A stretch of 64,000 nucleotides of DNA from Pirellulales bacterium (GCA_963733035.1 CAVTBU010000006.1:32001-96000), one strand, 5' to 3'; positions 1-54,132 are shown, numbered from the stretch's first letter. Program-made: numbers and translations. Notes: generated by a model from the letters alone, not told the origin.

Positions 1-502
1 GATACGAGATGCCCAGCAGGCCGACATTGCCGTTGTTTAGCGGCACGTTCTTCACGAGCCAGTCGATCGTGTCGTACGTATCGGTGCTTTCGTCAATGTC
101 TTTAGGTCCTTTGCGATCCATGTGCGGGCGGACGTGCACGAACTGGCCTTCCGACGCATTTCGCCCACGCACGTCCTGATAGACAAAGATGAAGCCTTCC
201 TTTGCGTAGTGTTTCATCTGCCAGCGAGGAGATTGCGGGTAGTTGCTGGCCCCGTATGGCCGCAGGCCGTAGGGTGTTCGTTGCAACAGAATCGGATACG
301 TCTGGGAGCCATCCTTGGGCACATAGGCGGCCGTGAACAGATGAACTCCGTCGCGCATGGGAATCTTGTATTCATATTTCGTGAAGTGTGCTTTGATGTA
401 GGCGTGATCCGCGACGAAAGAATCGTCCGATGCGCGAGCGATGCCTGCGTCCAGCAACACGACCAACAACAACACGGACCATTTCCAGCAGACCTGCATC
501 AT
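1..502 (-). CDS. CocE/NonD family serine hydrolase (alpha-amino acid ester hydrolase-like), 5' part; runs off the window edge
   Basis: Not in the ORF track; translated by hand: MMQVCWKWSVLLLVVLLDAGIARA (signal-like)...YTKYE-like FTKYEYKIPMRDGVHLFTAAYVPKD...RTPYG...EGFIFVYQDVRGRNASEG...DESTDTYDTIDWLVKN...GNVGLLGISY, where GxSY is the nucleophile motif. Confidence 0.85.
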   Translation of the reverse strand, partial: MMQVCWKWSVLLLVVLLDAGIARASDDSFVADHAYIKAHFTKYEYKIPMRDGVHLFTAAYVPKDGSQTYPILLQRTPYGLRPYGASNYPQSPRWQMKHYAKEGFIFVYQDVRGRNASEGQFVHVRPHMDRKGPKDIDESTDTYDTIDWLVKNVPLNNGNVGLLGISY

Positions 503-1041
503 AAATTTCCCTTCGATCGGTTGCCTCGGCGACGAGTCCGCCGGTAGCCAAGTCTAGTTGCATCACGTCTTGATGCTGATTCTAGCTCGCCGCGAGGGGA
601 GTTTCATTAACCCCCAGGGCTGAGGCCCACTTTGAAGCCAATCGCTGTGCGACGATGGCCAAATATGGCTGCAGAATTTCGCGTAATTGGCGACTTTTTT
701 CGCTGTCGGGCGCCCTCGGCACGGCGGACGGGATATTCGGAAGCGGCACGACGCCCCACGAGAGTGATCGACGTGTTTAATTCTTGCAGCTGATGCCGCG
801 GCGAGCGCCCGTCGAGCAGGGTGATTGAAAATGCTCCAGACGTCGAACGACCCAGGACCGGGACAAATACGTCGAACGTGGTCTACGCTGTGCGGGCAAA
901 ATGCCGCGCCAGCACGACGTTAAAAGTGCTATCGATGCCGAATGTCTTGGGTGCAACTCGGGCCCGTTCGGCTTTGGCATGTCCCTTGCGGCTAAAGGTT
1001 TATCGGGTCGAGATATTCTCTAAGCATAAAGGAGGTGTTCC

Positions 1042-1932: not shown

Positions 1933-3321
1933 TCAGGCGAGGATCGCGTCGAGCACGTTGCCGTGGACGTCGGTCAGACGAAAGTCGCGTCCCGCGTAGC
2001 GGTAGGTTACTCGTTTGTGATCGAGTCCCAGCAGATGCAGGATCGTCGCGTGGTAGTCGTGAACATGACAAGGGTCTTTGGCGATCTGCATGCCGTACTC
2101 GTCGGTTTCGCCGTAAGCCAGGCCACCGCGGACTCCGCCACCGGCCAATAGGCAGCTGAACGCGTCGATAAAGTGCTCGCGTCCCTTGCCGTTGAATGTG
2201 GTGGGCGTGCGACCAAACTCGGTGCAGATGGCAACCAGGGTATCGTCGAACAGTCCGCGACGCTTGAGGTCGAGAAGCAAACCCGTGAGTGCCCGATCGA
2301 CGCGCAGCGCCTTCGGACGATGGTCCTCCATGTTGCCGTGCGCATCCCAGTTGTCGTGAGAACCGGTGTCGATTAATTCAACGGTTCTGACACCATGTTC
2401 GAGCAGCCGTCGCGCCAGCAGGCATTGTGCGGCGAAGGATTTCTTCTCGCCGGGCTCGGCACCATACAGCGCAAGCGTTTCGGCCGATTCGCGACCAAGG
2501 TCAAATACCTCTGGCGCCGCCCGCATCATGCCCCGGGCCGTGGCGAAGCTGGCAGTACGAGCGGGCAGGTTGAGATCATCCTGGCGTGCATCGGCATGTA
2601 GACGATTGACATCGTCGAGCATTTGCCGTTCGAGTTCGGCAATCGTCGCCGATTGGATCGATGATTTCAGGTCCGGAATCGGATCGTCCCCAGGCACGAT
2701 CCGCACACCCTGATGCAAGGGTGGCAAGAAGTTGCTATCGAATACTTGAGCCCCGGCGTACGGCAGGTGTTCGCATAGCACGACATACGGCGGCAAGTTC
2801 GGATTGAACGTTCCCAGCGCATAGCTCAGCCAGGCGCCGATGCTTGGCATGGGAACCGTCGATGAGCCCGTGTGCATGGCCAATGTGGCTTGAAAGTGCT
2901 CAACGATATCAGTGTGCATGCTGCGGATGACACATAAGTCGTCGGCCACGAGTCCCAGCTGCGGGAACAATTCGCTAAAGGGTAAGCCTGAAGATCCGTG
3001 TTGTTCGAATTTGAACGGCGATGGCATTAGCTTGGCGTTCGGATTGCCGCGAAGCTGGTGCGTTGTCAACTGACGGCCCTGGTCCGTTGCAAGACGCGGC
3101 TTCGGATCAAACGTATCGACGTGCGAAAAGCCTCCGGTCAGGAAGATAAACAACAGTCGTTTTGCCTTGGCGGGATGATGTCCTGGCTGCGGAGCCAACG
3201 CAAAACCGCCGTGCACCTTGGCAGCCAGTGCGAGCTGCTCCCGCAGCCCGAGAGCCGCCGTGGCGCCGGCGGCGGATCGGCAAAGAAATTGACGGCGATT
3301 GAGCGGTTGGATGCGACGCAT
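1933..3321 (-). CDS. DUF1501 family (sulfatase-like) protein with a Tat-like signal
   Basis: Start trimmed to MRRIQPLNRRQFL; motifs AKRLLFIFLTGGFSHVDTFDPKP, CLLARRLLEHGVR, WDAH, EFGRTP, RLTDVHG. Confidence 0.88.
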   Translation of the reverse strand: MRRIQPLNRRQFLCRSAAGATAALGLREQLALAAKVHGGFALAPQPGHHPAKAKRLLFIFLTGGFSHVDTFDPKPRLATDQGRQLTTHQLRGNPNAKLMPSPFKFEQHGSSGLPFSELFPQLGLVADDLCVIRSMHTDIVEHFQATLAMHTGSSTVPMPSIGAWLSYALGTFNPNLPPYVVLCEHLPYAGAQVFDSNFLPPLHQGVRIVPGDDPIPDLKSSIQSATIAELERQMLDDVNRLHADARQDDLNLPARTASFATARGMMRAAPEVFDLGRESAETLALYGAEPGEKKSFAAQCLLARRLLEHGVRTVELIDTGSHDNWDAHGNMEDHRPKALRVDRALTGLLLDLKRRGLFDDTLVAICTEFGRTPTTFNGKGREHFIDAFSCLLAGGGVRGGLAYGETDEYGMQIAKDPCHVHDYHATILHLLGLDHKRVTYRYAGRDFRLTDVHGNVLDAILA

Positions 3322-3328
3322 TGGAGCC

Positions 3329-5697
<2,369 letters not shown>

Positions 5698-5847
5698 GGC
5701 GAAAAGCCTCGGCTGAACCGGGGGTGGGAGGATCAAGCAGGAATGGCAGTATACCATGTTCCGCAATTCGATTGTGCATCGGAATTGCGGATTTGAAGAA
5801 CCCAACGGCAGCGCACCGCAGCGGACGAGATGCAGGCGGGAACCCGG

Positions 5848-6876: not shown

Positions 6877-9800
6877 TTAGCGGGCGGAAGCGGGTGACGC
6901 GCTCGGCTGCGTCATCGTCACGGCAGGAATCGACGCCTCGGCCGTCGACTGGGAGCGGGGAGCTTCTTGCTTCCCGGGCTCATTTGCGGCAGATGCACTG
7001 GGTCTAGGCAGTTCCGTCCAGCTAACGTCCGCACGAGTATGCAGACGAGCGGCGATCTCCGTGTAGTCGTTTCGCCCTGAAATCAATCGAGCCGCGACGT
7101 GGGGTAGCGACAGTTCTTGTTGCTCGTAGCAGAGCGTCAGGTCCGCGTCGGAGTCATTGAGGATCGTCGGCTGTGGGTTGAGCAAGTTGCCGAGAGCATC
7201 GCGAAGGGGAGCGTTGGCTTCGCGGTCGGGCAGGATTGCGAGCAGACGCTGACAGCCGGCGCAGTCGATGAGTTTGGGTCGGGCGGCTTCCTGGCAGGCC
7301 GTTAGCCGCGCCGTCTGCCGCTCGACATCGTGATCGGTTCCGAGTACCGCGTCGCTAAGTGAGATGGCTTTCAACGCCTCCAAAACCTCCGCTCTCGCTT
7401 CGGTTCGCAACGCCGCGAGCATGGCAGGCCGCATGGCATCCGCCCGCTGACACACGTTGCGAAGCCCGCCGTTCGGCAAGAGGAACTGCTCTTGAATTCG
7501 CGAGTCGACTCGCTGTGCCAGCCGGGGTAGTTGGCTTTGTAGTTGACCTGCCAATGCGTCCTCGACTTCTTCCAGAATGGTCTCGGCCACGGGCGCGTCA
7601 TCGTCGTCCCATGGGAAGTCCGCGTCAAACTGGTCGGACCATTGGCCGAGTTCACGTTGCAAGTCTTTGATTTGGTCGCCGGCGGAGGTGATTCCGGACC
7701 CCAATAGGCGCAGGAGCTTGACCACTCCTTGGAGCGTGTAGGCTTGTAGCCGCAATCGCATCACAAGCAATAGCATGCCGTCGAGTTCGGCTGCGTGCTT
7801 CTGTTCGGCGCGGCGCGCACCGAACATTCGCGATCGGTTCGGCACGTTGCGTTCCGTGGCGCGCACGGTGCGCTCCAATTCGTGAAGGTTCTGCAGCGTT
7901 TCCTTGACCTGGTCGGTCGCTTCAGCATCGAGGGCTCGGAGATGGACCGCGAGGGCATCTCGAGCCTTGATTGCCCACCCAACTCGGGCTTCAGGGTTGT
8001 TGACCAACTCGAGGATAAATCCACGCAACCCCTCCGACTTGGGAGCCGCAAGCTGTTTCAGACCGCGCTCGACCGCGACATGAGCGGCTGGCAGCGAGAT
8101 CTTGAGGCCATCGGGTCCGGTGTCCGGCGGTTCGAACAGTTCGTGGATGGCTTGCAGGAGGCGAACGCAGGGCGTCCCAGGGCTCGCCTGGCCTTGCGTT
8201 TGCACGTTCGCTCGGAGACGGGCATATAGGGCATCGGCGTCTCCACCAAGCTCCTTGTCGAGCAAGCCGGCGACTGCCGCGCGAAGGTTCGCTAAATTAA
8301 TCCCGAGCGTCTGGCACTGCTCCTCGGGCGACGTGAGTTTCGCAGCCGCGGCGGAAGGGGGTGGGAACAGTGACGGCGGGGCATTGCGGCTGCGACGCTC
8401 GTGGCCGGTGCCGCGCCAGTGATCCACGACTTCCTGGCAAAGCAGTTCGGTTGTAAGAGTTGGCAGCGATGTCTGCAGACTGCCGATCGAGACGGTGCCA
8501 AAGCCGCGGAGTGATACCTGGGCCGCCTCGTCCGATGTCGAGGTTCGACATCGATCAAGCGCCGCGCCGGCCGGGGTCGCCGCGTTCAAATATAGATACG
8601 AGGCCAGCACATTGGTTGCCGCCTCGTATTCGGTTTCGTTCAGATCATTACCCAACGGCACGAAGTAGACGTTGGGAAACGCACCGTTCGATTCTGGTGA
8701 TGTCAGATCACAGGTCGTACCACCGGGGGAGTAGCCGGACTCGCGGTAATGCTGTAGTTCCTTCAGGCAGGCATAGGCGTTCGCGGTGGCCAGCTCCGCT
8801 GCGGAGGTGTTTCGATCTGTCGAGTGGGTAAATATGCCACAAAGCCCTTCGTCGGAACAGCCAGCGTCGCGGAGCAACTTGCGTATCGCGTAGGCGACGT
8901 CGAGCACCATGCCGCCACCCGTGCCACCCGAGATGGACGCAATTACGAAGACGCGCGGCGCATGGGAGTCGAACGGCTGTCCGGTGATTTCGGTCGATGC
9001 AGCCAACGCTTCGGGTGCGATCATGTCCGCCAACGCGGCACGAATCCGGTCCAGCACCTGCGGCTCATGGTCGATGAGCGCCAAGCGACCCAGCGGTCGG
9101 CGGCCTTCGGTTTGAAGCGACCGCGGAATGTTGTACAGCCAGCGCCGGCTGAGCCAACTGAGGATATTGCGGCCGTCGGTCGTGTAGTCGTGGGCGCTGC
9201 GCAGCGGGAGTGCCAAGGTTTCACGATCCGCGAGGGCTGTGTCTCGATTCCCCTCTGTCATCTGGTAGAGATACTTGGCGTCGGTATCAAGCAGCAGCAT
9301 TTGCATTGCCGGTATGCCAGCAGCGGCACCAAAGCGATCGCCCAACCGACGCCGCAATTGACGTAGAACGCGTCCCGCGGTTCCGCCGATGCCCAAGAAC
9401 AAAGTGGGTCGCAACCCGGTGGCGCTAGCATCCGACTCGAGCGGACCGAGTTCGACGATCGGTTCGGCCGCGCCGATGAGTGCCATCGACGCGGCGCATC
9501 GCGACTCAGATAACGGTGCCGGTTCTTCCCCTAGCACCTGCGTGTTGGTGGCAGGTTGTTCGCCACGCCGGTGGCGGCTATCAGTGTCGGTCTTCGAGGC
9601 AGACGACTTGATCGAGGTCGTGTCGCTCGCCGGGCGCTTACCGGGCGCTTCCGGCCAGTCACGACTGGGTTTCGCGCCGAACAGCGCGTCAATCAGGCTG
9701 CGGCAGCTGGGAAATCGCTCGGCCGGATCCTTGGCGAGCGCCCGGCTAACAACGGCCTGATCGTTGGCTGAAAGACCCGACAGCCGTGGACTCGCGTGCA

Positions 9801-10473
9801 AGTGTTGCGATGCCAGTTGTGCCGGCGTACGACCTGGAAACGGCAACTGGCCGGTCAGCATCTCCTGGTAGACGATCGCCAGGCTGTATTGGTCGCTTCT
9901 CTGACTGGGGCGGTCGTCGAAGACCTCGGGGGCGGCATAGATTGGCGTCAGTCCGCCCATCAGCGACGCCGTTGCGTCGTGCTGCAGATCCTTGACGAGT
10001 CCAAAGTCGGCGACCTTAACATGTCCACCGACAAGCAGCATATTCTCGGGCTTCACGTCCAGATGTTGTAGCGAGAAGCTCTCATTCATGTAGTCGAGAG
10101 CATCGGCGGCGTCGCGCATATAGCGCAAAAGTTCTTCACGAGGAATTCCGTCTGCGCCGGTTTGTCGGAGCTGCTCGTACCGGTCCTTGAGGCTCATGTC
10201 GGCCAGTTCGGTAACGATGATCAGCTGACCGTCGACAATTTCGAACCGCTCGAGCGAAAGCAGGAAAGGATGCCGTACCTGCTTGATCCGGTCGAGCGCC
10301 TTCAGCTCTCGCGCCGCGCGGGCATCGTCGAAGTACCCGTAGACGAACTTGATGGCCTTGGTCAATCCACCCGGTGCCCGGGCACTCCAGACTTCGCCGT
10401 AGCCGCCGACGCCGATCCGGTCCTCGACCACGTATCCGGGAATCGGCTCGCTATTTCTCGGCACATGCGACAT
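6877..10473 (-). CDS. Hanks-type Ser/Thr kinase fused to a tubulin/FtsZ-like GTPase (Tubulin_2) domain and a C-terminal helical region
   Basis: Kinase motifs: IGVGGYGEV, AIK, HLDVKPEN, DFG, APE. Tubulin-like motifs: LFLGIGGTAG, LLLDTD, RPLGRLAL, IASISGGTGGGMVLDVAY, ANAYACLKEL. Start trimmed to MSHVPRNSEPIPGY. Confidence 0.85.
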   Translation of the reverse strand: MSHVPRNSEPIPGYVVEDRIGVGGYGEVWSARAPGGLTKAIKFVYGYFDDARAARELKALDRIKQVRHPFLLSLERFEIVDGQLIIVTELADMSLKDRYEQLRQTGADGIPREELLRYMRDAADALDYMNESFSLQHLDVKPENMLLVGGHVKVADFGLVKDLQHDATASLMGGLTPIYAAPEVFDDRPSQRSDQYSLAIVYQEMLTGQLPFPGRTPAQLASQHLHASPRLSGLSANDQAVVSRALAKDPAERFPSCRSLIDALFGAKPSRDWPEAPGKRPASDTTSIKSSASKTDTDSRHRRGEQPATNTQVLGEEPAPLSESRCAASMALIGAAEPIVELGPLESDASATGLRPTLFLGIGGTAGRVLRQLRRRLGDRFGAAAGIPAMQMLLLDTDAKYLYQMTEGNRDTALADRETLALPLRSAHDYTTDGRNILSWLSRRWLYNIPRSLQTEGRRPLGRLALIDHEPQVLDRIRAALADMIAPEALAASTEITGQPFDSHAPRVFVIASISGGTGGGMVLDVAYAIRKLLRDAGCSDEGLCGIFTHSTDRNTSAAELATANAYACLKELQHYRESGYSPGGTTCDLTSPESNGAFPNVYFVPLGNDLNETEYEAATNVLASYLYLNAATPAGAALDRCRTSTSDEAAQVSLRGFGTVSIGSLQTSLPTLTTELLCQEVVDHWRGTGHERRSRNAPPSLFPPPSAAAAKLTSPEEQCQTLGINLANLRAAVAGLLDKELGGDADALYARLRANVQTQGQASPGTPCVRLLQAIHELFEPPDTGPDGLKISLPAAHVAVERGLKQLAAPKSEGLRGFILELVNNPEARVGWAIKARDALAVHLRALDAEATDQVKETLQNLHELERTVRATERNVPNRSRMFGARRAEQKHAAELDGMLLLVMRLRLQAYTLQGVVKLLRLLGSGITSAGDQIKDLQRELGQWSDQFDADFPWDDDDAPVAETILEEVEDALAGQLQSQLPRLAQRVDSRIQEQFLLPNGGLRNVCQRADAMRPAMLAALRTEARAEVLEALKAISLSDAVLGTDHDVERQTARLTACQEAARPKLIDCAGCQRLLAILPDREANAPLRDALGNLLNPQPTILNDSDADLTLCYEQQELSLPHVAARLISGRNDYTEIAARLHTRADVSWTELPRPSASAANEPGKQEAPRSQSTAEASIPAVTMTQPSASPASAR

Positions 10474-10481
10474 GACGGAAC

Positions 10482-11651
10482 CTACCTGAGGGCCGCGCGG
10501 GCGGGTGCCGCCGGGCGCGATTCGTGAATTAACGAGGCCACGGTCTGGGGCGTCCCGAACAAGTCTCCCTGGGCGAGCGTGCAGCCGAGGTTGCGGCACA
10601 CTTCAAGGTCAGCATTGTCGTCGATGCCGGTCGCGATCACCGCGCTGTCGAGGTCGTGGCTTGCCCGGACAATGAGTTGCACCTGACGTTGGCGATCGGC
10701 ACCGGAATGAATGCTCTTGAACATCGACGGGGCCAACTTGAGGTAGTCGGGAGCGACGTCCTTGTGCTCGCTGATACGCGCTTTGCCAGACGCATAGTTG
10801 TCATAGGCCACTTGGATCTGCACATCTCGCAAGCAGGCCAAAAGCGCCCGAAAGTCGGCAGTGCCGCGGACCGCGCTGTCGGGAATCTCGACAACGATCT
10901 GGCGGCTACTGCCAACCAGGTTTCGCAATTGACAGAGGTGGCTGATGAGCGCCGGTTCCGCACTTTCTGCCCCGGTGATCGCCAAGAAGAGCTTGCCGCC
11001 GTGTGGCAAAGTGACCGTTTCCTCGACAGCCAAACGGCGAAACAACTGTCGCAACCGTCCGGCCGCGCGACACTCCACTGGCGGCACTAGCTGTTCGCAG
11101 CGGGGACTGGGCGGCCGACCTGCGCCGTCGGAAGCGAACGCCTCGTGACCGAAGACCTCGCCACTGTCCAGCGAGATGATCGGTTGATATAGCGTTCGCA
11201 GGCAGCGATGGGTGACAACTTCGTGAGTGCGACGAACCGCGAAGATCGTTTCCCAAACGGCATTGCGCTCGCCAGAATGTCCCGCGTGGGCCATAACCTG
11301 TGTGGCCGTCTTGCGCGTCGCACCGTGCGAGCCGCAAAAGAATGTGAGTTCGACATCCGCGATTACGAGCAGGTCGCCGTCGGAAAGCGATGCCTCGTCG
11401 ATTCGTTGGCCATTGAGGAAAGTGCCGTTCGTGCTCCCCAGGTCACGCAATTTGAACTTTCGACCTTGGCGAGCAATTGTCGCGTGTTCGCGAGAAACCT
11501 GATTCGAGTCAATCTGCAAGTCGGCCGTCTCATTCCGTCCGATGGTAAACGGAAACGAGGCCAGCGGGATTTTTTCAGTTGACCCATCCGGTAGGTCTTG
11601 TTCGAGCCAAGGGGCGCTGACGGCGCCTTCCGGCATCACTTGGGTACTCAT
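10482..11651 (-). CDS. FHA domain + degenerate EAL domain protein
   Basis: FHA: FTIGR...VSREHA...DLGSTNGTFLNG. EAL fold: YQPII, EAF, DNYASG, YLKLA, QGDLF, with the catalytic residues substituted. Confidence 0.85.
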   Translation of the reverse strand: MSTQVMPEGAVSAPWLEQDLPDGSTEKIPLASFPFTIGRNETADLQIDSNQVSREHATIARQGRKFKLRDLGSTNGTFLNGQRIDEASLSDGDLLVIADVELTFFCGSHGATRKTATQVMAHAGHSGERNAVWETIFAVRRTHEVVTHRCLRTLYQPIISLDSGEVFGHEAFASDGAGRPPSPRCEQLVPPVECRAAGRLRQLFRRLAVEETVTLPHGGKLFLAITGAESAEPALISHLCQLRNLVGSSRQIVVEIPDSAVRGTADFRALLACLRDVQIQVAYDNYASGKARISEHKDVAPDYLKLAPSMFKSIHSGADRQRQVQLIVRASHDLDSAVIATGIDDNADLEVCRNLGCTLAQGDLFGTPQTVASLIHESRPAAPARAALR

Positions 11652-11868
11652 CTGTGTGGTTATTGCTCTTGGGGTGCCCGTGAGGGTGCGCAGCGCCCGG
11701 CCGAGAAAGGCTGGCGAAATCCACAACCCGCGCAGTCATCAAAAAACCTTGGAATCGCATTTAAACCATAGCTCATACCGGCCTGGACAATGGCGATAAG
11801 CTAAGTTCTCGATGGTGCCTCGCGCGTGGGCACGTAGCTGTAACTCCCTTTCGGAAGACGCTCCGCAT

Positions 11869-13275
11869 ATGGAAGTCAATCCCGCTTCGCAAACCTTGAA
11901 GGTTCTGGTTGTAACGGAAGATCGCATTTTACAGCGGCAGCTGTCCGGTTTCTTTGAGCTGGTTGGCTACCAAGTGCTACAGGCCGCCGAGCGTCCATCG
12001 GCGCTTGCGGCCGTGGCGGCAGAAAGTCCGCAGATCGTACTGCTCGACGCGGAACTGGCCGCCGCCGGCGACTGGGAACTTTGCAGCTTGCTGGCACAAC
12101 GTCAGCCGGGGAGCGCGCCGTTCAAGTTCGTGCTGGTCGACGAACCGGACGTACAGCAATTGCACGAAGCGCTCGAAGCGGGGATCGACGACTTCTTGAT
12201 CAAGCCGGTGGCCTACGGCGAACTCCTTTCGCGGATGAGGTCTGCCGCCCGCGTGCTGGAATACGATCGGCGCGTGAGTCAACAGAGTCGCGTCGATCCG
12301 CTGACGGGGCTGCTCAGCCGCGCGGCGATGTCCGCCCACTTGCGGCGGCAACTTGCCGACCACGCCGGGACTCCGCGCGTGGCCTGCGTGGTGCTGGATA
12401 TCGACTTCTTTTCCCGTATCAACAGGCTGCATGGCGCGGCTGCGGCCGACACCCTGCTGCAAGCCTTTGCACAAGAGCTTAGTCGTTTGCGGGTTGGTTC
12501 CGAGGTGCTAGGTTGTTTGGGCGTCGACCGCTTTTGCGTGATGCTGCCCGGCACGAATGAGGAGACGGGGGCGGAATGGGCCGAGAATGCACGCGAGGCG
12601 CTTACCGCGTGCAGCTTCAAGATCGGCGAAACGCATTGCACCGTCACTGTAAGCGTCGGCGTGGCCGGCTGCGAGGCCTCAGAGCGGGCCGAGCAATTGA
12701 TTGACCGCGCGGTTCAGGCCTTGCATAGTGCCAAGAAGCTAGGGCGCAATTGTGTCGTCACGTGGACGGAACAAGCGTCGCACGGCAATGAATTTGGTGC
12801 CGCGGACAAGCTCTTTGAGCATACAACCGTCCGCGATGTTATGACGCCTTGCACGGTGTTTCTGGGTCCAAGCGAGCCGGTGGCCGAGGCAATTGAACTT
12901 CTTGATCGCACGCGGCTCGACGGGATTCCGGTGGTCGACGCAAAAGGCAAGTTGCTTGGAGTATGCGAGCGCGTGAGTCTGGCTGAATTGGCCGAAACGG
13001 ATGATTCCCGCACCGTTCGTGATGCGATGACGACCGGCATCCAGTCGTTTAACGATGACGCGAGCCTGGCTGAACTAATGGACTATTTTACACGCGACAA
13101 CAATTCGCTGGTGATGGCCGTCACGGCGGGGAGACCGGTAGGATTCGTCACTTGCAACAGCCTGGTGGCGCTGTCGCGGCCCGTGAAAAGTGCCAGTCTT
13201 GTTTCCGAGCTCGAATACTGCGACAACAGCGACTACCTGTTGGTGCCCGATGTGCGACCGCTTGAAATGGAGTAG
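11869..13275 (+). CDS. Receiver + degenerate GGDEF + CBS-pair protein
   Basis: REC: KVLVV, VLLD, GIDDFLIKP. GGDEF fold: DPLTGL, LDIDFF, GVDRF, TVSVGVA, AKKLGRN. CBS: TVRDVMT, IPVVD..GKLLG, TVRDAMT. Confidence 0.85.
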   Translation: MEVNPASQTLKVLVVTEDRILQRQLSGFFELVGYQVLQAAERPSALAAVAAESPQIVLLDAELAAAGDWELCSLLAQRQPGSAPFKFVLVDEPDVQQLHEALEAGIDDFLIKPVAYGELLSRMRSAARVLEYDRRVSQQSRVDPLTGLLSRAAMSAHLRRQLADHAGTPRVACVVLDIDFFSRINRLHGAAAADTLLQAFAQELSRLRVGSEVLGCLGVDRFCVMLPGTNEETGAEWAENAREALTACSFKIGETHCTVTVSVGVAGCEASERAEQLIDRAVQALHSAKKLGRNCVVTWTEQASHGNEFGAADKLFEHTTVRDVMTPCTVFLGPSEPVAEAIELLDRTRLDGIPVVDAKGKLLGVCERVSLAELAETDDSRTVRDAMTTGIQSFNDDASLAELMDYFTRDNNSLVMAVTAGRPVGFVTCNSLVALSRPVKSASLVSELEYCDNSDYLLVPDVRPLEME

Positions 13276-13335: not shown

Positions 13336-14658
13336 TTACTTGTTGATCACCACCGTGAAGTAGCTATCAACCACGCGGTCAAAGTACTCCGGCAGCATCT
13401 CGACCGGCAGATCGTTATAGGCACAGTAGTTACGTACCTGGCCCAGCAAGTCGCGCGGATGACACCGTCTCAGGGGCCGTTTGCCCTGGTAGTGTTTCTC
13501 CAACAGATAGTCAACAACCTCCGGACGGTACTCGCACTCGAACTTCTGGCAATAGAGTTCAAACAGCGTATGAAACTCTTCAGGGTTCGGATTGTCGATT
13601 TCGATCTTGTAGGGAATGCGTCGCAGAAAGGCCTCGTCGACCAGATCACTCGGCTCCAAGTTCGTTGAGAAGATTATCAACTGCTCAAATGGTACCTGGA
13701 ATTTCTTGCCCGTGGACAAGGTCAGGTAGTCTTGCCGGGCTTCCAGCGGAACGATCCAACGGTTGAGTAACTCGGCCGGTTCGATACGCTGTCGGCCAAA
13801 GTCGTCGATCAGCAAACAGCCACAGTTGCTCTTCAGTTGCAACGGGGCTTCACTGACGTTGGCCCGAGGATCGTGCCTGATTTCCAGGCTGTCCAGCGTC
13901 AGTTCTCCGCCCACGACAACCGTGGGACGTCGGATCTTGATCCAGCGGCGATCGAAATTCGCCGATCGCAGGATGCTTTCCTCGCGTTTCTCGACTGCCT
14001 CGTGATACGCGTTGTCGTAGAGCTTGATGATCTGGCCGTCTTCGATCAGGGCGTGGGGCACCCAGATATGCTGGCCAAAACACATGGTAATTCGCGTGGC
14101 CAAAGTCGATTTGCCGTTGCCGGGGTTTCCATAGAGAAAGAGGCCGGCCCCGGAGTTGATGGCCGGTCCCAGCGTCTCGAAAAGTTCATGTTCGACGCAA
14201 ATATCCGAAAACGCGTCAGTGAGTTGGCTGCGCTCTGGCGCTTCCGCTCGAATCGTTTGGGCCTCGACCGACAGCACGTAATCGGACAGCGGCACCGGGG
14301 CGGGACCGATATACGCGCAGGCCTCGAAGTAGGTTTGAGCGCGGGCGCGACCTTGCTCGGTCAGGGCGTAACTGTAGTCGCTGAGCGCCGCCGATCCAGT
14401 GTGTACGATAATCTGCCGCGTGCGGAGATCCTTGTAGATTGGCTCGAGCAGGCCGAACGGCAAGCACAAGTGGTCGGCAATCGCGCGGCCACTCGTTGTG
14501 CCCACGAGCGAGAGGTATTTGCAGACTTGCGCTTCGACCAACGATGCGGGCAATCCGGCTTCGTCCAACGAGTGGGGTTCTGCCGGACGAAACGCCTCGT
14601 CAGACAGCAATGTCGCGAGCAGGCTCTCGCGGGTATCTTTCGTGGAGGTAGTCGACAT
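13336..14658 (-). CDS. AAA+ ATPase of unknown function with an N-terminal winged-helix-like region
   Basis: Walker A GNPGNGKST, Walker B LLIDDFGRQ, sensor FSTN, arginine finger DEAFLRRI. Confidence 0.8.
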   Translation of the reverse strand: MSTTSTKDTRESLLATLLSDEAFRPAEPHSLDEAGLPASLVEAQVCKYLSLVGTTSGRAIADHLCLPFGLLEPIYKDLRTRQIIVHTGSAALSDYSYALTEQGRARAQTYFEACAYIGPAPVPLSDYVLSVEAQTIRAEAPERSQLTDAFSDICVEHELFETLGPAINSGAGLFLYGNPGNGKSTLATRITMCFGQHIWVPHALIEDGQIIKLYDNAYHEAVEKREESILRSANFDRRWIKIRRPTVVVGGELTLDSLEIRHDPRANVSEAPLQLKSNCGCLLIDDFGRQRIEPAELLNRWIVPLEARQDYLTLSTGKKFQVPFEQLIIFSTNLEPSDLVDEAFLRRIPYKIEIDNPNPEEFHTLFELYCQKFECEYRPEVVDYLLEKHYQGKRPLRRCHPRDLLGQVRNYCAYNDLPVEMLPEYFDRVVDSYFTVVINK

Positions 14659-14924
14659 AAGCTTTCTCCCGAACGAGGTCGATGCCGATCCGCAGGGATT
14701 CGCAACCCTCAAAAGAAATGTAGGTTGCGTTTCTGGGACCGGCTGCTGGCAAATGGCGGCTCGGGAACCATCGACAAGTGCTGCAATAGCCCTGTCATAG
14801 GGCTCGGCAAGACGGCAAATGTGGAGAGCGGCTTGGGGTCGATATACGCGTATCGTGGAGCCCGGTGCGCATGGCGAGACATGCCTATCTGGAGGTGCCA
14901 TATTGGCAAGTCGGATGACTCGAC

Positions 14925-16388
14925 TTACGCAAGTAAGTCTTCGATGACTCGGGCCTCGGCCACGCCGGTCAACTTCTCATCGAATCCGTTGCGGTAATAG
15001 GTCAGTTTTTCGACGTCGAGACCCAGCAGGTGGAGCACGGTTGCATGCCAATCGCTGACGCTGACTGGATTTTCAGCCGCGGCAAAACCGAGTTCATCGG
15101 TCGAACCATAAGTGAGGCCGCGCTTGACACCGCCACCGGCCATCCATCCGCACATCGCACGTTTGTTGTGATCGCGGCCGGCATTTGCGGCGTCCATTCC
15201 GGCGCCGATCTGGGCAATGGGGAGTCGGCCCATTTCACCGCCCCACAGCACCAGGACGTCGTCGAGCATCCCTCGCTGTTTCAGGTCTTGCAGCAACCCA
15301 GCCACCGGCAGATCGGTACGATCGCAGGCAGACTTCATTGCGCTGGCAAGTTTTGCGTGATTGTCCCAGATCTGGCCATCGATAAAGATCTGCACGAATC
15401 GGACACCCCGCTCGACCAGCCGCCGCGCCATGAGGCAGCGGCGACCGTACGAATCGGTTGGCTCCTTGCCAATCCCATAAAGTTCCATCGTGGCTGCTGA
15501 TTCTTTGGTCAGGTCGAGTGTATCGGATGCCGACATTTGCATCCGGGCTGCGAGTTCGTAACTTGCAATGCGGGCTTCGAGCCGCGGATGATTAGGACGC
15601 TGGCGACGGTGTGCGTCATCGAGCAGGCCAGCCAGCTGTCGTTCGATGGGCGTGATCTCGTCTGGTTCGTCGAAGTCCCGGTTGAGGTTCAGCACCGGAG
15701 CGCCTTGCGATCGAAAACGCGTCCCCTGAAAAACGGGCGGCAAGAAACCGCATTGCCAATTCTGCGTGCCGTTCACAGGCAGCCCTTGGGGATCGTCGAG
15801 CACGACATACGCGGGCAGATTCTGATTCTCGGTGCCCAGTCCATAGGTTATCCAGGAGCCCAGACTGGGGTAACCGGGCAACATGCGTCCGTTTTGGATC
15901 TGGAAGATCGCCGGCTCGTGCGTGATGTTGACGGTGTGCATCGAGCGAATGACCGAGATCTCGTCAGTGCATTTGGCCAAGTGGGGCATGGCGTCGGATA
16001 CCCACATGCCCGACTCGCCATACTGGGCGAACTTGAACGGGCTCTTCATCAAGGCTCCAGCCTCGTGCGGGTTTTCGACCTCGCCGGCAATCTGGTCGAA
16101 ATAAGGCTGGCCGTGCCGCCGCGCCAGCTCTGGCTTGGGATCGAACAAGTCCATCTGACTGGGACCACCGTTCATGAACAAGTGAATCACGGCTTTGGCA
16201 CGTGGTTCGAAATGCGGATTGCGGGCCACCAGGTCGGACGGCACGGACTTTTCCGCGGTTTTGGCAAGTCCGCCGGCCAGCACGTCGTCGTTCAGCAGGG
16301 AGGTCAGTGCCACTGCGGTGAATCCCGCGCCGACGTGTTCGAAAAATAGGCGGCGAGATAGCCTGGCGTGGATTGGCTTTTGAGCCAT
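14925..16388 (-). CDS. DUF1501 family protein with a Tat-like signal
   Basis: LSRRLFF, AKAVIHLFMNGGPSQMDLFDPKP, CLMARRLVERGVRFVQ, WDNH, GEMGRLP, GRDHN. Confidence 0.88.
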   Translation of the reverse strand: MAQKPIHARLSRRLFFEHVGAGFTAVALTSLLNDDVLAGGLAKTAEKSVPSDLVARNPHFEPRAKAVIHLFMNGGPSQMDLFDPKPELARRHGQPYFDQIAGEVENPHEAGALMKSPFKFAQYGESGMWVSDAMPHLAKCTDEISVIRSMHTVNITHEPAIFQIQNGRMLPGYPSLGSWITYGLGTENQNLPAYVVLDDPQGLPVNGTQNWQCGFLPPVFQGTRFRSQGAPVLNLNRDFDEPDEITPIERQLAGLLDDAHRRQRPNHPRLEARIASYELAARMQMSASDTLDLTKESAATMELYGIGKEPTDSYGRRCLMARRLVERGVRFVQIFIDGQIWDNHAKLASAMKSACDRTDLPVAGLLQDLKQRGMLDDVLVLWGGEMGRLPIAQIGAGMDAANAGRDHNKRAMCGWMAGGGVKRGLTYGSTDELGFAAAENPVSVSDWHATVLHLLGLDVEKLTYYRNGFDEKLTGVAEARVIEDLLA

Positions 16389-16398
16389 GTCGTGCACC

Positions 16399-19300
16399 TT
16401 AGTCGATGTACAGGAAAGCGGCGGAATTGAAGAGTGCGTGGCAGAAGTTTTCGAGCGCCTTGCGAGATGCGGCCTCATCGTCGATACGATCCTCGATGAC
16501 GATTAACCGCGGCGTGCTTCCGCGTGTGGTCCCATGCACGCCGTCGTCCCAGTCCTGGCGATATGCTTTACCGTCTTCCTCGGCGGTTAGCGCCAGGGCC
16601 AGCTTACCGTCAGACCGGATCGCATTCTGTAAGAGTTGGAAATCGCCGGCCGTGGCTGATCGAGAACGGACGTAGTTTCCCGAATGCAGATCATCGGCTG
16701 ACAATTCGAGTCGTCCAAGCGCCGCAAGGTTTTGTGCTCGGTCTTGTTTTTCCAAGACAAAACGCGTCCAGTTGAGTCCGGTTACACCGGATGGAATGAC
16801 CGCCGCGAACTGATGAATCGCGCCTGGGTCGATCTGGCCGAGTTCCAGATACGCGTCCTTGATCGGCATCTTAGCCAGCTGGCTGACGTCGAACTCCAGG
16901 ACACCAATCCGTCGTGCCCCGTCGGCGGCAGCCCGCGACCAGACCGAGATCAAATCGTTCTCGCAAACGTTGTCTGGCGCTGATTCACGAATCCAAAGAT
17001 GGGTCGTAGCGAGCAGTTCGTGACGCGTCCCTGCGGCGACGCTGGTCCAGGCGGCTTTCAGCTTGCTCAGACCATTGCCGGCCGCCGACACTTCCAGGTC
17101 AGTTGGCGGTCGCCCGGCTGCGAGCCAGTAGGCGACTTCGATCTGCCGCTTTTCGTCCGCGCCGGCAACGTTCCAAACTCGGTCGGCGAAAGACCTGGCC
17201 AGGTTGCGCACGAGCGTACTGTTTTTTAACTGCAGTGCCTGGGGGGCCACGATCGACTCGCGCCGCTCGACGCAGTTGGGATCCATGCTTGCCACGTCGA
17301 AATTCTGCAGCATGGTCACCGGCTGAGTCCGCCGCTTGAGAGAATAGATGCTGCGACGCCACATCCCCTGGCCATCGGCTTGGACCGTGACGAGTCCCGC
17401 GGCGTTGGCAGACAGTGGATCTGGGGGGCCGAAGGGGCGCTCATTCAGCTTGCCCGCGACCGACAATAGGGCATCGCGCAGCACTTCGCCCTCCATCCGC
17501 CGCAATGGCATGCGTGAGAGGAGGGCATCGTCAGGATCCAGTCGGAGGTGCTCGTCCGTCACGTTTGACGACTGGCGATAGACCGAGCTGGTCATTAGTA
17601 GCCGATGCATCTGCTTGACGCTCCAGTCGTGATCGGTGAAATACACGGCGAGCCAGTCAAGAAGCTTCGGATGGGTCGGCGGGGCACCCGTAGTACCGAA
17701 ATTGTCCAGCGACTTCACCAAACCTTCACCGAAGTGATGTTTCCAGAGGCGGTTCACCATCACGCGGGCGGTGAGTGGATGACTCTTTTGCGTCACCCAT
17801 TTAGCCAAGGCCAAGCGGCGGCCAGTTTTCTGCGCCGGGCCACGGGGGCGAAACCTTGAAACGCGTGCGGCCATCGGTCAGCACTGAAGGCACACCAGGG
17901 CCGACCAGCGTCCCAGGTGTCAAGTAGTTGCCGCGGCGCAAGATGTATGTTGGCGACGGCTCGCCGCGGTCCCATACGGCGCGAATCATCGGCTGATCTT
18001 CCGGCTTGGCACCAGCGGCCTCCCAGGCTTCGCGTTCGGCCGTCGTCACGTACGGCAGTACCGATGACGCGTCGTCCTTGGGTTGGTCCGGTCCGCCGGT
18101 GCGCGGCGGCACCCAATCGTGTTCGTCGAGCGCGCCCTTGAGCGTCGCGGCCAAGCGATAGTAATCGCGCTGCGGAATCGGGTCGAACTTGTGTGAGTGG
18201 CAGCGGGCACATTTGATCGTCAAGCCGAGCACTGCCGAACTGAAGACTTCGATTTCGTCGTCAATCACTTCCAGCCGATCAGTGACGAAGCCGGTGATCG
18301 GCGCATACGTGGCATCGGCCGCCAAACGCAGGAATGCGGTAGCCACGAGATTGTCGTAGATCTCAGGAGTGATTTTCGGCGCGTTCTCATAGTCGGCCAG
18401 TTCGTCGCCGGCCAGTTGTTCGAGCAGGAAGCGATCGTAGGGTTTATCGCCGTTAAAAGCGCGGATCACGTAATCGCGAAATCGCCAGGCATAAGGTCGA
18501 ACCACATCGGCATTCTGAATGCCTTCCGAGTCGGAATAGCCGGCCAAATCGAGCCAATACTGTCCCCAGCGCTCGCCGTAGTGCGGAGAGGCCAAAATCT
18601 TTTCGACAAGTTGTTCATAAGCAGCGGGACTGGTATCAATCACAAATGCATCGATTTCGTCGGGCGTTGGTGGCAGGCCGATAAGATCGAAATACACGCG
18701 TCGTGCGAGCGTTCGTCTGTCCGCTTCGGGCGAGAGTGACAGTTTGTGCTCTTCAAGCTTTGCCAGCACGAACGCATCGACCGGATTGCGGACCTTGTCT
18801 GTCGCTCGAACCGGCGGTGGTTCGATTGACTTGGGCGGTTGAAACGACCAGAACCGTCGATCTTCGTCGGTCACGAGCGGATCGGGCTGTCCGTTGGCAA
18901 TGTCGGGTTTGATATCGCCGCGAGGTGCACCGGCAGCAATCCATTTTGCGAGAGTTTCGCGTTCGATTTCCGTCACCGGCCTGACCGAGTAAAACGCCAA
19001 CGTTTTACGGGGCGGCATCTCGCCCGCATGAATTCGCTTGTGAATCAAACTCTCGGCCGGATTTCCGGGAACGATTGCCGGGCCCGACTTACCTCCCTTG
19101 AGCAGGCTGGCGACGCTCCGCACGTCGAGCCCACCTTCTTGTCGTTGACGTCCATGGCAAATGGCACATCGCAACAGCAACGTCGGCAGAACGTCGTGCT
19201 CGGAAAGCTGCTTTTCGGCGACTTGGGCCGTATTGCCCATCGGCGCACCCGCGTCGATCCAGCGTTCGATGATGGCGATGTCCTCGTCATCAAGTTGGCC

Positions 19301-19657
19301 TTCGTCGGCCGGCGGCATAATGCGCTCGTGCGCGTATTCGTACAGTTTTCCCTCGCGCGGGTTCTCAAAGTCGAGAATTGGCCCCGACTCCCCGCCTCGG
19401 CGGATCCCCTCCGGAGTGCTCAGGTTCAGGGCCGACTTCTGGGTATCGCCGCCGTGGCAATACTCGCAACTGGCTGCGAAGATCGGCTGGACTTTCTGGG
19501 AAAAATAGCGTGCGTCGACGGCAGCTGCTTCATCGCCCTCGGCAATCACGTTGCCAGGCAGCAGACCAAGAATTGCCAAACCCACGGTCAGCACCAGGGA
19601 GGCATACCGTTTTGAGTGACGCGCATGTTTTCTCGCTGGGCACCGGTTCATGCTCAT
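16399..19657 (-). CDS. PSCyt1 x2 / DUF1549 / DUF1553 multiheme protein with an extra beta-rich insert, interrupted by a frameshift near 17826-17832
   Basis: [25 protein letters not shown] and [11 protein letters not shown] in ORF 17801..19657; [29 protein letters not shown] and [10 protein letters not shown] in ORF 16399..17874. Confidence 0.85.
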
Positions 19658-20405: not shown

Positions 20406-20661
20406 ACTCTTTGAGCGAGCGGCCAGGCCGGCAGCCACTCCAGGCGAGTTGTGGATTGCAGCCAGGTTGACCCCTCGCATGGTTGACTTCGGTCGAACAA
20501 TTCGGGTATGTTTTCGCGCGTGAATTGCATTTTGCGCTGGCGCAGAACGACCTCACGTGGAACAGGTGATTCGGTCTTGCAGTTTGCCGGCGCCGCCAAT
20601 CTCTGGCGCGATGTCTGCGAAGACCGCCCGTAACCGGCCACTCCAAAGGCAGACGCTGACC

Positions 20662-23570: not shown

Positions 23571-26500
23571 CTATTGCCACGGCGCCGTGGGCCAAAGAAT
23601 GGCCGTACCGTCGAGACTTGCGCTAAGTACGAGACGCCCGTCCGATGAAAATCCGACGGACGTCACGGCCTGGTCGTGATAGCGTAGCGTGAGTAGTTCT
23701 TTACCGCTTGTCGGTGCGCCCGAGTTCGGAGATCCAGGTGCATTTGCAATCGGTTCCGCTCGCTCCAGTTCGGCGTCCCATATTTTGACCAATCGGTCGC
23801 GGCTGCCCGTGAGGGCGCGTCGACCGTCAGGTGAAAAGCCCACGGCACCGACGATGTCCGTATGGCCTGCATAGCGCGTAAGTTTTTCATGAGTCACGGC
23901 GTCGAACACGACCGCTTCGCCATTTGCAAAACCGGCAATGATTCTTTGTCCATCGCGCGAGTACGCCACGGCATGCACGGGGGCGGTGCCGCGCCATGTG
24001 GCCACGCTGACGCCGTCGGCGACGTTCCAAATTCGAAGCGTCGAGTCGTTTCCCGCGGTCAGTACTTGATTGCCGTTCGGGGAGAAAACTGCCGCCAAGG
24101 GGGCCGCCGGCTCGTTGGGGTCTGTCGCGTGATGGAGGACATGCAGCACTTTGCGAGTGGGCCAATGCCACAGCCGCACGGTCCCGTCTTCTGAGGCTGT
24201 AAGTAGGAGGTTTTCCTCCGCCGGTGAGAATTGGACGCTGCTTAGCGGGCCGTTATGTTCGGCCGGAAGTTGCAACTCGGCCAGCCCGGTGCTGATATTC
24301 CAGATCTTGGCCCGTCGATCCGATCCCCCCGTGACGGCGAACTTGCCGCTTGCGGAAAAAGCCGTGGAGGTGATGCCGCTGTGCGGCTTGAACTGAAGTT
24401 CCGGCCGGTCGGAATTACCGGCTGGCCACAGCGCCGCGCCGTTCCCGCCGATCGTAAGCACGCCGGCGCCGCGTGGTGCATCGAGAGCCGCCCAAATTCC
24501 CTCATGGCGATTGGACAGGTCGAGATACGGCCCACCACCCGGCGCGGTCACTTCGACTCTGGCGACCAGGTCGAAGCGTCGCACGATCCCTCCTTCCGTT
24601 TCATTTGATTGAACGAGCGTGCCCGCTAGGAGAAGCCCGCGACCGTCAGTCGTGTAGGCAATGGAGGAAAGTGCCTCTGGCCCGCGATAGACTTCACCGG
24701 CGGCCGTCCCCTGGTCGATGTCCCACAGTCGGACAATACACTGTCGCGTGCCGCCTGGACTATCCTCTGACAGCGTTGCCACTTGCTGGCCGTCCGGCGA
24801 GATTGCCAGACCGATGACGGGCATATCGAACGCGTCGCGCCGTTGGAGATCTCCTAATACTAGCATCGCGGGAAGTTCTTGCCCGCTTGCAACGTCCCAC
24901 TGGGCTACCGTGCCGTCCAAACTAGACGTTAGCAGTCGCTTGCCGTCGGGCGTGAAATGGGCGGCCGTGATTCCGGCCGTGTGGCCTCTAAGCGTACGCG
25001 CCAATGTGCCGGTGGTCGTGTGCCAAAACTTGCCGGTGCCGGCCTCATCGCCAGAAAAGAGGAGTAGTCCGTCAGGTGAAATTGCCAGCGCCGTGACGAG
25101 GGCAGCATGCCCGGTTCCAAAGGCCGTATCGGCGAGCATCTGCCGCTCGGCGTGATTGCCTTCGGGATCGACTCGCCACAGTGACAACTGCACACGAGTG
25201 TCGAACGTGCGCTGTGCACGTTCGTCTGGTTCGCTATTGCCGGTTAAAATCCACCTTCCGTCGCGCGAAACGGCAATCGTTGCATTGCGGCCCGTGTGTT
25301 CGAGCGTTTGCAATTGGCTGCCAGTGGCGGCGTCCCAAATGCGGGTCGTGCGGTCACCGCCCGCGGTCAGCAACCGGCGGCCGTCGTGGAAATAGGCCGC
25401 TCGGGTTGCCAAGAAATCGTGTCCTTCGTTGAGCGTCACGACGGGCTTGCCCGTATCAGCTTGATACACACGAGCGACATGGTCGTTGCCCGCCGTGATG
25501 ACACGATTTCCATCATGCGAAAACGCGGCAGCTAATACGGCGTCGGCATGACCCACAAGCGCGACACCTTGCGGTGCCGCCTTGTAGTCCACGAGATCCC
25601 ACAACTTGATTTCTCCTTCCTGGCCGCCCGAGACAATTTGTTGACCATCCGGCGCAATTGCGCAGGATTGCACCGGTCGGCTATGACCCTTTAGTTGTGC
25701 GTGGGGCCGGCCGGTGAGAACTTCCCAAATCCGCATGGTGTTGTCGTCTCCTCCCGAGAGTACGTACTGGCCGTCGGGAGAGAATTGCACCGAGCGAACA
25801 GGACCGGCGTGTCCTTCCAACGCCCGGCTATCTTGAGGTGCGAGCGGTTGTCCGGTCGCCACGAGTTGTCTGAGATCGACGTCTGCGATCGTATCGGGTT
25901 GCCAGATGAGCACGCGCTTGTCGTAGCCGCCGGTGACCACTTGTCGACCGTCAGGGGAGAACGCTGCGGCGAAAACGGCGCCTTGATGTCCGAGGAAAAC
26001 TTTCCGTGCCACGAGGCGATCGTTAGAGCGCGCCTGCGAGGGCTCGAACTTCCAGATAATCACTCGGCCATCGTCTCCGGCCGTGACAATTTGGCTTTTA
26101 TCAGCACCAAAGGCTACCGCCCAAACCGGACCGTAGTGACCGCGTAGCGGGGAGCCTTCCGTCTCTCGTTGTTTGGTAACCTCCCACACGCGCGCCGAGC
26201 CATCGCTGCCTGCGGAAACCACCCAGCGGTCATCGGGAGAAAAGTCGAGGCTGAGTATTCGCCCAGAATGGCCAGACATTTTTCCGACCAGATCGCCATC
26301 GTGCGCATCGACAAGGTGAATTTGGCCGTCGTCGCCCGCCGCCGCGATGCGATTGCTGTTGGACGAGATGGCCGCGGCGTAGATGGGACTGCTCGATTTG
26401 CAGGCCCACTTTTGTTGCCCACTCTTGCGGTCCCAAGCATGCAGATGCGCATCATCGCCGGCCGTGACAAACCATTCGCCGTCCGGAGAAAAAGCCACGG

Positions 26501-53947: not shown

Positions 53948-54132
53948 GGCATTCTCCTCAGAAGTCGAAACCGACTCAGTTGGGGATGGGGCCGCTGGGG
54001 GGATTCGCAGACCGAAGCGAACGCGGCGACTCGCCATTATAGTCGCAGTCAGCGATATTCTCAAAGAAGAATCGAGCCAGAACGGCGCGGTTCATGGTTG
54101 TGGTTCGCCGATCGCGGTGGGTCAATCAGTGT

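Follow-up and report, generated by a model that had tools for sequence, protein, structure and literature searches.

A kinase–FtsZl1 fusion gene of a Pirellulales bacterium, its predicted split tubulin-like fold and its conserved FHA-EAL and AAA+ partners

What might a protein kinase joined to a tubulin-like GTPase do in the Planctomycetes, which to our knowledge are without FtsZ? The question is raised by a gene at 6877..10473 (minus strand) of a 64,000-nucleotide stretch of Pirellulales bacterium DNA (GCA_963733035.1 CAVTBU010000006.1:32001-96000), here called the window. One long open reading frame (ORF) occupied 6877..10599 on this strand, open from a GTG at 10599. ATG 10473 was taken as the likely start, because AGGTAGG precedes it and it lies only 8 nt past the stop of the upstream gene (10482). 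The 1198-amino-acid (aa) product, P0002, was matched in Pfam by Pkinase (residues 14–254, E 1.3e-30, 107 bits against a cut-off of 31.7) and by Tubulin_2, PF13809 (residues 358–652, E 2.4e-38, 132.7 bits against a cut-off of 27, profile positions 1–316 of 356). An earlier note on this DNA had called a non-RD Ser/Thr kinase fused to a Tubulin_2/FtsZ-like GTPase and had proposed a Tubulin_2 profile search as a check; with these scores the two-domain observation is confirmed, far beyond chance. The motifs that it quoted were all located (HLD at 137, DFG at 156, GIGGTAG at 361, DTD at 396 and SGGTGGG at 515). It was also right in seeing no transmembrane segment, the highest Kyte-Doolittle 19-residue mean being 1.49, over the T4 strand and loop, and a long helical C-terminus, the part beyond the GTPase domain being mostly helical by DSSP in both predicted models. 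From N- to C-terminus the protein thus comprised an intact non-RD Hanks-type kinase, a disordered linker of ~85 aa, a GTP-binding domain with intact T1 and T4 loops, and a mostly helical remainder.

Residues 342–1165 were folded separately, because Foldseek with the full-length model returned kinases only (PknB on top, E 2.1e-14; best structural matches PknB, PknF and PknI). The AlphaFold model of this part (m817b89b86068, built with a 120-row alignment) had a predicted local distance difference test score (pLDDT) of 92.8 and a predicted template modelling score of 0.88. A Foldseek search of the PDB with it gave 144 matches at E ≤0.001, the best being CetZ (3zid_A, E 1.6e-6), and all 41 matches listed of the 144 were members of the tubulin superfamily (CetZ, FtsZ, TubZ, and alpha-, beta- or gamma-tubulin). 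When the model was compared by VIA-align with 48,161 representative chains, CetZ again came first (Z 26.2, root-mean-square deviation 3.2 A, 293 of 342 residues aligned, model range 13..802), followed by CetZ2 (Z 24.1), BtubA (Z 22.2), an Asgard tubulin (Z 22.0), FtsZ (Z 20.6, 273 of 315 residues, model range 6..780), TubZ (Z 20.3) and PhuZ (Z 17.9). Tubulins overall scored Z 21–22, with alignments ending at model residues 822–824, and the best unrelated fold, a Rossmann-type reductase, scored Z 9.4. The earlier note had named the absence of a predicted tubulin fold as what would speak against it; such a fold was predicted, with CetZ as its best match. The numbers of aligned residues mean that more than the GTPase domain alone must align, and the alignments extended into a small alpha/beta unit at the extreme C-terminus of the protein.

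Structural elements were assigned from the order of DSSP elements and the aligned ranges only, and the following positions are to be read as such. The tubulin/FtsZ-type GTPase domain (residues 354–652, 8518..9414, minus strand, as are all parts of the gene), delimited by PF13809, the structural matches and column conservation, was read as S1 to H7/H8, with H7 at residues 613–632 and a candidate T7/H8 segment at 633–644. A strand (654–663, S7) and a helix (670–687, H9) would form the first half of the tubulin C-terminal domain (8413..8514). They were followed by long antiparallel helices of up to 62 residues with pLDDT >90, a helical insert of ~385 aa (residues 688–1073, 7255..8412). The second half of the C-terminal domain (residues 1074–1152, 7018..7254) would then comprise S8, H10, S9 and S10 (1074–1122), two H11/H12-like helices aligning with CetZ and tubulins only (1123–1144), and a tail motif, RLHTRxDVxW. 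A complete two-domain CetZ/tubulin/FtsZ fold is therefore predicted, with its C-terminal domain split between H9 and S8 by the insert. VIA-align found no specific structural relative of the insert, since its generic helical matches to 7dgy (Z 10.3) and IpaB (Z 8.4) fell short of the 13 required for helical folds. An ESM Atlas search for its relatives gave other Tubulin_2 clusters only (0.80–0.82, lead level), and a new fold is not claimed for it.

Conservation was strong on both sides of the insert. In the GTPase domain, with its T1 loop GIGGTAG, T2-like DTD and T4 loop SGGTGGG, residues G363, G516, G517 and G521 were kept in 120/120 rows and D396, T397 and D398 in 110–119 of 120; the T4 loop, SGGTGSG in the family consensus, carried the superfamily signature [SAG]GGTG[SA]G. 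A family-specific block, W440–H469, held the invariant residues R443, R444, W445, N448, S452, R459, P460, G462 and R463. In the candidate T7/H8 segment, placed by element order only, T633 was kept in 113/120 rows, Asp or Glu at 640 in 99/120 and R643 in 120/120. Towards the C-terminus, R1076, R1143, R1147, D1149 and W1152 were invariant in a 48-row alignment and at least 90% conserved in the 120-row alignment. The C-terminal part, searched against 1.84 billion representatives, matched 605 cluster representatives at E ≤0.001; the 150 listed were matched at or near their C-termini and appear to be members, or fragments of members, of this same planctomycete family.

That family is FtsZl1, the most divergent branch of the tubulin superfamily. 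Makarova & Koonin (2010, PMC2875224) defined it by an FtsZ-like domain followed by a coiled coil and, at the C-terminus, a helical region, and reported an N-terminal protein kinase on four planctomycete members. All these parts, the planctomycete N-terminal kinase, FtsZ-like domain, helical region and C-terminal region, were found in P0002. Tubulin_2 proteins of Planctomycetes were again described as bearing an N-terminal kinase by Santana-Molina et al. (2023, PMC9871819), and a 2024 survey (PMC11032199) reports that planctomycete kinases of the purely cytoplasmic kind are most often partnered by a tubulin-like domain. Full-text literature searches turned up no experimental work on FtsZl1. The gene thus belongs to a published, uncharacterised kinase::FtsZl1 family, the fusion having been in print since 2010. 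A protein search gave 248 matches at E ≤0.001, and 113 of the 120 listed carried both kinase and Tubulin_2; at least two of the seven without a kinase (P0022 and P0101) start within the kinase end or the linker and are therefore fragments. Relatives were encoded at 444 places in species-representative genomes.

Whether such a protein assembles was left open when the family was described. Makarova & Koonin (PMC2875224) gave the lack of filaments as one of three options for FtsZl1, and this is the starting point for a rival explanation: a GTP-sensing, non-polymerising switch or scaffold that controls the kinase or is controlled by it, in a pathway ending in cyclic di-GMP (c-di-GMP)-type effectors. 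The predicted 385-aa insert in the C-terminal domain, together with the N-terminal kinase, could block end-to-end contacts; the candidate catalytic acidic position 640 was Arg in 13/120 rows; and the partner genes described below encode signalling domains (FHA, REC, CBS, EAL and GGDEF). However, the same paper states that all characterised members of the tubulin superfamily form filaments, both domains of the fold, the candidate T7/H8 surroundings and the C-terminal tail are strongly conserved, and a dedicated AAA+ partner better suits the remodelling of an assembly. We consider the switch unlikely.

The attached kinase domain (residues 14–254, 9712..10434) had the motifs AIK (40–42), HLD (137), DFG (156) and APE (181). 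Among 120 aligned homologues, H137, D139, K141, N144, DFG, APE and the alphaC Glu, E56, were kept in all non-gap rows (the column of the catalytic Lys was left out of this count), and because of this the kinase looks active on its residues. At the position of the RD arginine, Leu (L138) was found in 110 of 111 non-gap rows, so that this is not an RD kinase. The linker that follows (residues 262–345, 9439..9690) was predicted as disordered, with pLDDT <50 at residues 277–321, and these residues were poorly conserved except for two threonines. Thr311 (9541..9543) was Thr in 102 and Ser in 3 of 110 non-gap rows, with Leu, Ile or Phe at position +3 in 93/108; Thr285 (9619..9621) was Thr in 75 and Ser in 8 of 113 rows and was usually preceded by Asp or Glu. 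Many FHA domains read phosphorylated Thr-x-x-hydrophobic sites, and Thr311-x-x-[L/I/F] is the best candidate for a linker phosphosite.

An FHA protein is encoded directly upstream. The gene at 10482..11726 (minus strand; longest ORF 414 aa, likely start Met26 at 11651, with homologue alignments starting at about residue 26) had an FHA domain (Pfam E 1.9e-20) and an EAL domain (E 1.4e-30). The best sequence matches of the FHA domain were Rv1747, EmbR and GarA, and its phosphothreonine-binding residues G63–R64, S78, H81 and S98–T99–N100 were kept in 61–62 of 62 orthologues. A complex prediction with FHA residues 40–140 and linker residues 262–356 gave a score of 0.00, without controls, and weighs neither way. 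Divergent from this gene lay a REC-GGDEF-CBS gene (11812..13275, plus strand; domains from Pfam) with a degenerate GGDEF motif, GVDRF, and beyond it a gene for an AAA+ ATPase (13336..14901, minus strand). No transmembrane segment was detected in any of the four proteins.

The neighbours of the gene in the window were searched against 80 related loci; many of these are short contigs, so that the fractions are lower bounds. The kinase was matched in at least 75 of the 80, FHA-EAL in at least 66, the AAA+ gene in at least 45 (44–88% identity) and REC-GGDEF-CBS in at least 40. Four of the five loci without a kinase match were at contig ends, and the fifth (L074) had 4 kb upstream with no match. 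Three arrangements were distinguished. Type A, that of the window, has AAA+ and, further on, REC-GGDEF-CBS in the opposite direction and divergent from FHA-EAL, which is followed by kinase-tubulin in the same orientation. In type B, FHA-EAL is divergent from AAA+, which is followed by kinase-tubulin, and in type C AAA+, kinase-tubulin and FHA-EAL follow one another on one strand. All 40 REC-GGDEF-CBS matches were in type A, and types B and C had no GGDEF gene. The two genes FHA-EAL and kinase-tubulin were separate in 42 of 43 type-A loci, with gaps mostly of <150 nt and a few of 230–560 nt; the gap was 7–10 nt in several of the closest relatives and 8 nt in the window. FHA-EAL and kinase-tubulin are joined in one natural ORF at L071:2210-6682 and in protein P0010 (1565 aa); these may be Rosetta-stone fusions or errors in the assembly of metagenome-derived genomes. 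A scan for promoters and terminators gave counts at the level of shuffled sequence and was uninformative on operon limits. One genome (G375) had two Tubulin_2 copies, one with an AAA+ gene directly upstream and the other with an AAA+ gene ~4 kb away.

On a FastTree tree of 57 tubulin-part sequences the arrangement types clustered, type A requiring 10 changes against 19.2 after shuffling and type B 3 against 10.3; the deep forks lacked support, and two ancient clades are therefore not claimed. These results showed a conserved Pirellulales module built around the gene, with FHA-EAL, a dedicated AAA+ paralog and, in type A, REC-GGDEF-CBS as partners. The supplementary neighbour table of Makarova & Koonin (PMC2875224) already lists FHA-EAL beside FtsZl1 in Pirellula staleyi and Blastopirellula marina, while the term FHA is absent from the main text of that paper. 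The operon partners it describes as typical of FtsZl1, and does not treat as defining, are a vWA protein, a diverged GTPase and an OmpA-like protein, none of which was found among the Pfam-scanned neighbours in the window. As far as the published descriptions go, the planctomycete FtsZl1 branch has a gene context of its own. The earlier note had given as background an association of the largely uncharacterised Tubulin_2 families with kinases and FHA proteins, which agrees with both the papers and the synteny.

Of the two c-di-GMP-type domains, EAL differed between the arrangements. Twelve catalytic or metal-binding EAL positions, which we take to be E R N E E D D K D E E Q, were mapped onto active EAL structures and counted for each orthologue. 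The window EAL kept 5 of the 12, too few for an active phosphodiesterase; its best PDB sequence match was the EAL domain of LapD (3pjt, E 3.8e-10). At most 6 of the 12 were kept in 38 of 39 type-A loci, and all 12 in 19 of 22 type-B or -C loci. Among 35 orthologues of the GGDEF protein, the fourth position of the motif was never Glu (Arg in 28, Gln in 5 and Leu in 2), in departure from GG[D/E]EF. From these losses both domains are predicted to be non-catalytic in type A.

The AAA+ protein (longest ORF 521 aa, likely start Met82 at 14658) had a Walker A motif and belonged to a widespread uncharacterised family with no Pfam model above threshold; a protein matching it at E ≤1e-30 was found in 173 of 201 genomes of the order. 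The best match in many genomes was a more distant paralog (~50–55% identity), as in all but one of those without Tubulin_2. When a close copy was defined by E ≤1e-160, close copy and Tubulin_2 occurred together in 94 of the 201 genomes and neither in 93, while 13 had Tubulin_2 only and 1 the close copy only; the counts are given without a test because related genomes are not independent. The source genome had a second AAA+ copy (G000:C4:177694-178986, L084:9692-11245; 50% identical), whose neighbours are metabolic (aconitase and aldehyde dehydrogenase) and give no functional clue.

A conflict system is another rival explanation. Kaur et al. (2020, PMC7159879) count as such systems the operons in Firmicutes and Actinobacteria in which tubulin homologues bearing C-terminal coiled coils are combined with vWA proteins and GAP1-N2 GTPases, and the module might accordingly be an NTP-dependent anti-phage or anti-invader system with a tubulin-like assembling effector, in which kinase and FHA set the trigger threshold. 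The kinase matched the PADLOC models mad6 (E 3.8e-42) and PD-T4-6, along with MkoA and Stk2, all four being generic kinase models; the AAA+ protein weakly matched IetA (E 1.2e-8 over ~50 residues); the downstream flank was unconserved, its hydrolase gene being matched in 2 of the 80 loci; and the distribution of Tubulin_2 in the order was patchy (107 of 201 genomes). But the PADLOC matches extend no further than the general fold of kinases and an AAA lid, and the tubulin-like part had no match among the defence models. Pfam scans showed no vWA or GAP1-type GTPase gene in the module or the rest of the window, and surroundings of housekeeping genes with nothing annotated as mobile. The gene is single-copy in its genome, no toxic effector domain is predicted, and FtsZl1 inheritance in Planctomycetes was described as mainly vertical (PMC2875224). 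A conflict role seems quite improbable.

The same distribution bears on cell division. PF13809 had one copy in the source genome (6.65 Mb, 92% complete), and PF00091 had no match there in a search that was positive in 13 of 14 control genomes. Together with the complete tubulin/FtsZ fold that is predicted, this would suit a replacement of FtsZ in the budding or division of FtsZ-less Pirellulales, and kinase control of division proteins is common. Against such a replacement, the 107 PF13809-positive genomes of the order included only 77 of 147 of high quality. Families within the order were uneven, some being nearly always positive (14/15 and 13/15) and one not at all (0/15), and residues 342–1198 were matched at E ≤1e-10 in 8 of 301 genomes across the phylum. 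Present in about half of the genomes of the order, Tubulin_2 is thus not a general stand-in for FtsZ. The Pfam scans found no division or cell-wall genes near it in the window, and Makarova & Koonin (PMC2875224) disfavoured a direct division role on the ground that FtsZl1 usually coexists with FtsZ elsewhere. We regard replacement of FtsZ as very unlikely, and the link to FtsZ-less division that the earlier note implied is weakened by the patchy distribution. A role in core cell division is less likely than a non-essential one in the cytoskeleton or in signalling. Two or three copies of Tubulin_2 were seen in some genomes (e.g. G375, G416 and G401).

The overall explanation that we favour, and to which we would give an even chance, is a phosphorylation-regulated tubulin-like module with FHA-EAL and AAA+ partners. 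In such a module the tubulin-like part would bind GTP and self-associate, and the attached kinase would phosphorylate the linker, with Thr311 as the prime candidate. The phosphothreonine could then dock into the invariant FHA pocket of the partner and bring the EAL domain to the assembly. In type A this domain would serve as a nucleotide sensor or adaptor, and in types B and C as an active c-di-GMP phosphodiesterase. The AAA+ ATPase would remodel or dismantle the assembly. The suggestion of the earlier note, a phosphorylation-controlled polymerising or membrane-remodelling GTPase, is plausible as a hypothesis.

Several results weigh against this explanation. By sequence, the protein gave 14.6 bits with the canonical Tubulin profile PF00091 (cut-off 33), in the T4 region only, and no match to FtsZ_C or Tubulin_C at E ≤0.1 in Pfam. 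Residues 342–1198 had chance matches only in the PDB (E ≥0.14), and a profile of eight kinase-less rows retrieved designed helical bundles at E ~1–10 and no FtsZ or tubulin chain. Makarova & Koonin (PMC2875224) likewise could not identify the T6–H7 elements or a tubulin-type C-terminal domain by sequence, in addition to their option of a family without filaments. The insert and the T7/H8 candidate were placed by secondary-structure order and aligned ranges only. Among the partners, the degenerate EAL and GGDEF domains of this subtype make any c-di-GMP link itself conjectural. The AAA+ protein had only short weak matches to classic AAA+ proteins such as Rpt subunits, Vps4/CdvC, spastin and Msp1, which do not assign it to a clade, and the AAA+ paralog was missing from 13 genomes with Tubulin_2 (9 of these <90% complete and 2 with weak partial Tubulin_2 matches). 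If the split-domain reading is right, the elements missed by sequence in 2010 are present, and the "coiled-coil + helical C-terminal domain" of that description is the insert.

A stronger version of the phosphorylation-regulated module can be put forward as a long shot. It would be a self-contained, phospho-threonine-gated cytomotive system with a CetZ-like GTPase polymer, the insert as a spacer or as an arm for membrane or cargo, recruitment of FHA-EAL and severing by AAA+. If so, the FHA-EAL partner would read or degrade c-di-GMP and the AAA+ protein would recycle the polymer. Such a system would amount to a bacterial counterpart of kinase-controlled tubulin with katanin/spastin, and it might shape the budding or the internal membranes of FtsZ-less Pirellulales.

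The gene itself is ordinary within its published family, and the value of the analysis lies in hypotheses rather than discovery. A predicted complete fold with an internal insert bears directly on the question of FtsZl1 filaments, posed since 2010, and with the conserved partners beside it, what was only a fusion of domains yields precise hypotheses that can be tested. New here are the prediction that the C-terminal domain is split, the recognition of the Thr311 motif, the contrast of a degenerate with a putatively active EAL subtype, together with a GGDEF partner that has Arg in place of Glu, and the counts of AAA+ co-occurrence.

The rest of the window was ordinary chromosome in the Pfam scans, with pentose-phosphate genes, efflux genes and a histidine kinase. 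Another large signalling kinase was encoded at 23571..28613 (minus strand), a 1680-aa protein with an N-terminal Ser/Thr kinase and several WD40 beta-propellers. Next to it, at 20557..23550 (plus strand), lay a gene whose 997-aa product combines a proprotein-convertase P domain with an SdrD B-like domain; an HExxH-type metalloprotease motif was seen in it by eye. Two sets of large paired genes at 1933..5805 and 14925..19657 (minus strand) looked by eye like the DUF1501/DUF1553-type pairs of planctomycetes. In a 726-aa protein (51884..54064, minus strand), an AhpC/TSA-type redoxin domain was combined with a C-terminal EF-hand and a weakly matched haem-binding domain. A 528-aa AAA_33/zeta-toxin-like P-loop kinase protein (61150..62736, minus strand) adjoined a protein with a Ysc84 domain (Las17-binding, actin-regulator-type; 62814..63848, minus strand).

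Compared with known systems, the protein fitted published FtsZl1 (PMC2875224) as a member, with PF13809 far above its cut-off, the same order of parts, the N-terminal kinase and the FHA-EAL neighbour. The difference is one of reading, T6–H7 and a C-terminal domain being predicted here, with the helical region inside that domain; the typical vWA, GTPase and OmpA neighbours are also missing from the window. The protein resembled CetZ, tubulin, FtsZ and TubZ in its predicted two-domain fold, glycine-rich T1 and GGTG[S/G]G T4 loop. Unlike them it had a 385-aa insert, the W440–H469 block and a fused kinase, and it was missed by PF00091.

Among signalling systems, the mycobacterial PknB–GarA and Rv1747 pairs were alike in both components, the kinase being nearest PknB, PknF and PknI and the FHA domain nearest Rv1747, EmbR and GarA; a Thr-x-x-hydrophobic site in a linker beside the kinase presumably resembles the docking of those FHA proteins. 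The mycobacterial Hanks kinases are membrane receptors, whereas the window kinase is soluble, non-RD and fused to a tubulin-like domain, with an FHA partner that carries EAL. The EAL domain had its nearest PDB sequence match in LapD, which like it has lost catalytic residues; LapD nevertheless keeps the Asn, K-x-D and E-x-x-E positions, all lost in the window EAL. Archaeal ESCRT loci of the Halo_FHA clade, as described by Makarova et al. (2024, PMC10936438), co-encode a polymer former, an AAA+ protein, an FHA reader and a kinase. Their polymer is ESCRT-III and the window AAA+ protein matches Vps4 only weakly and over a short length, so that the likeness, a polymer with its own kinase, reader and remodelling ATPase, is one of analogy.

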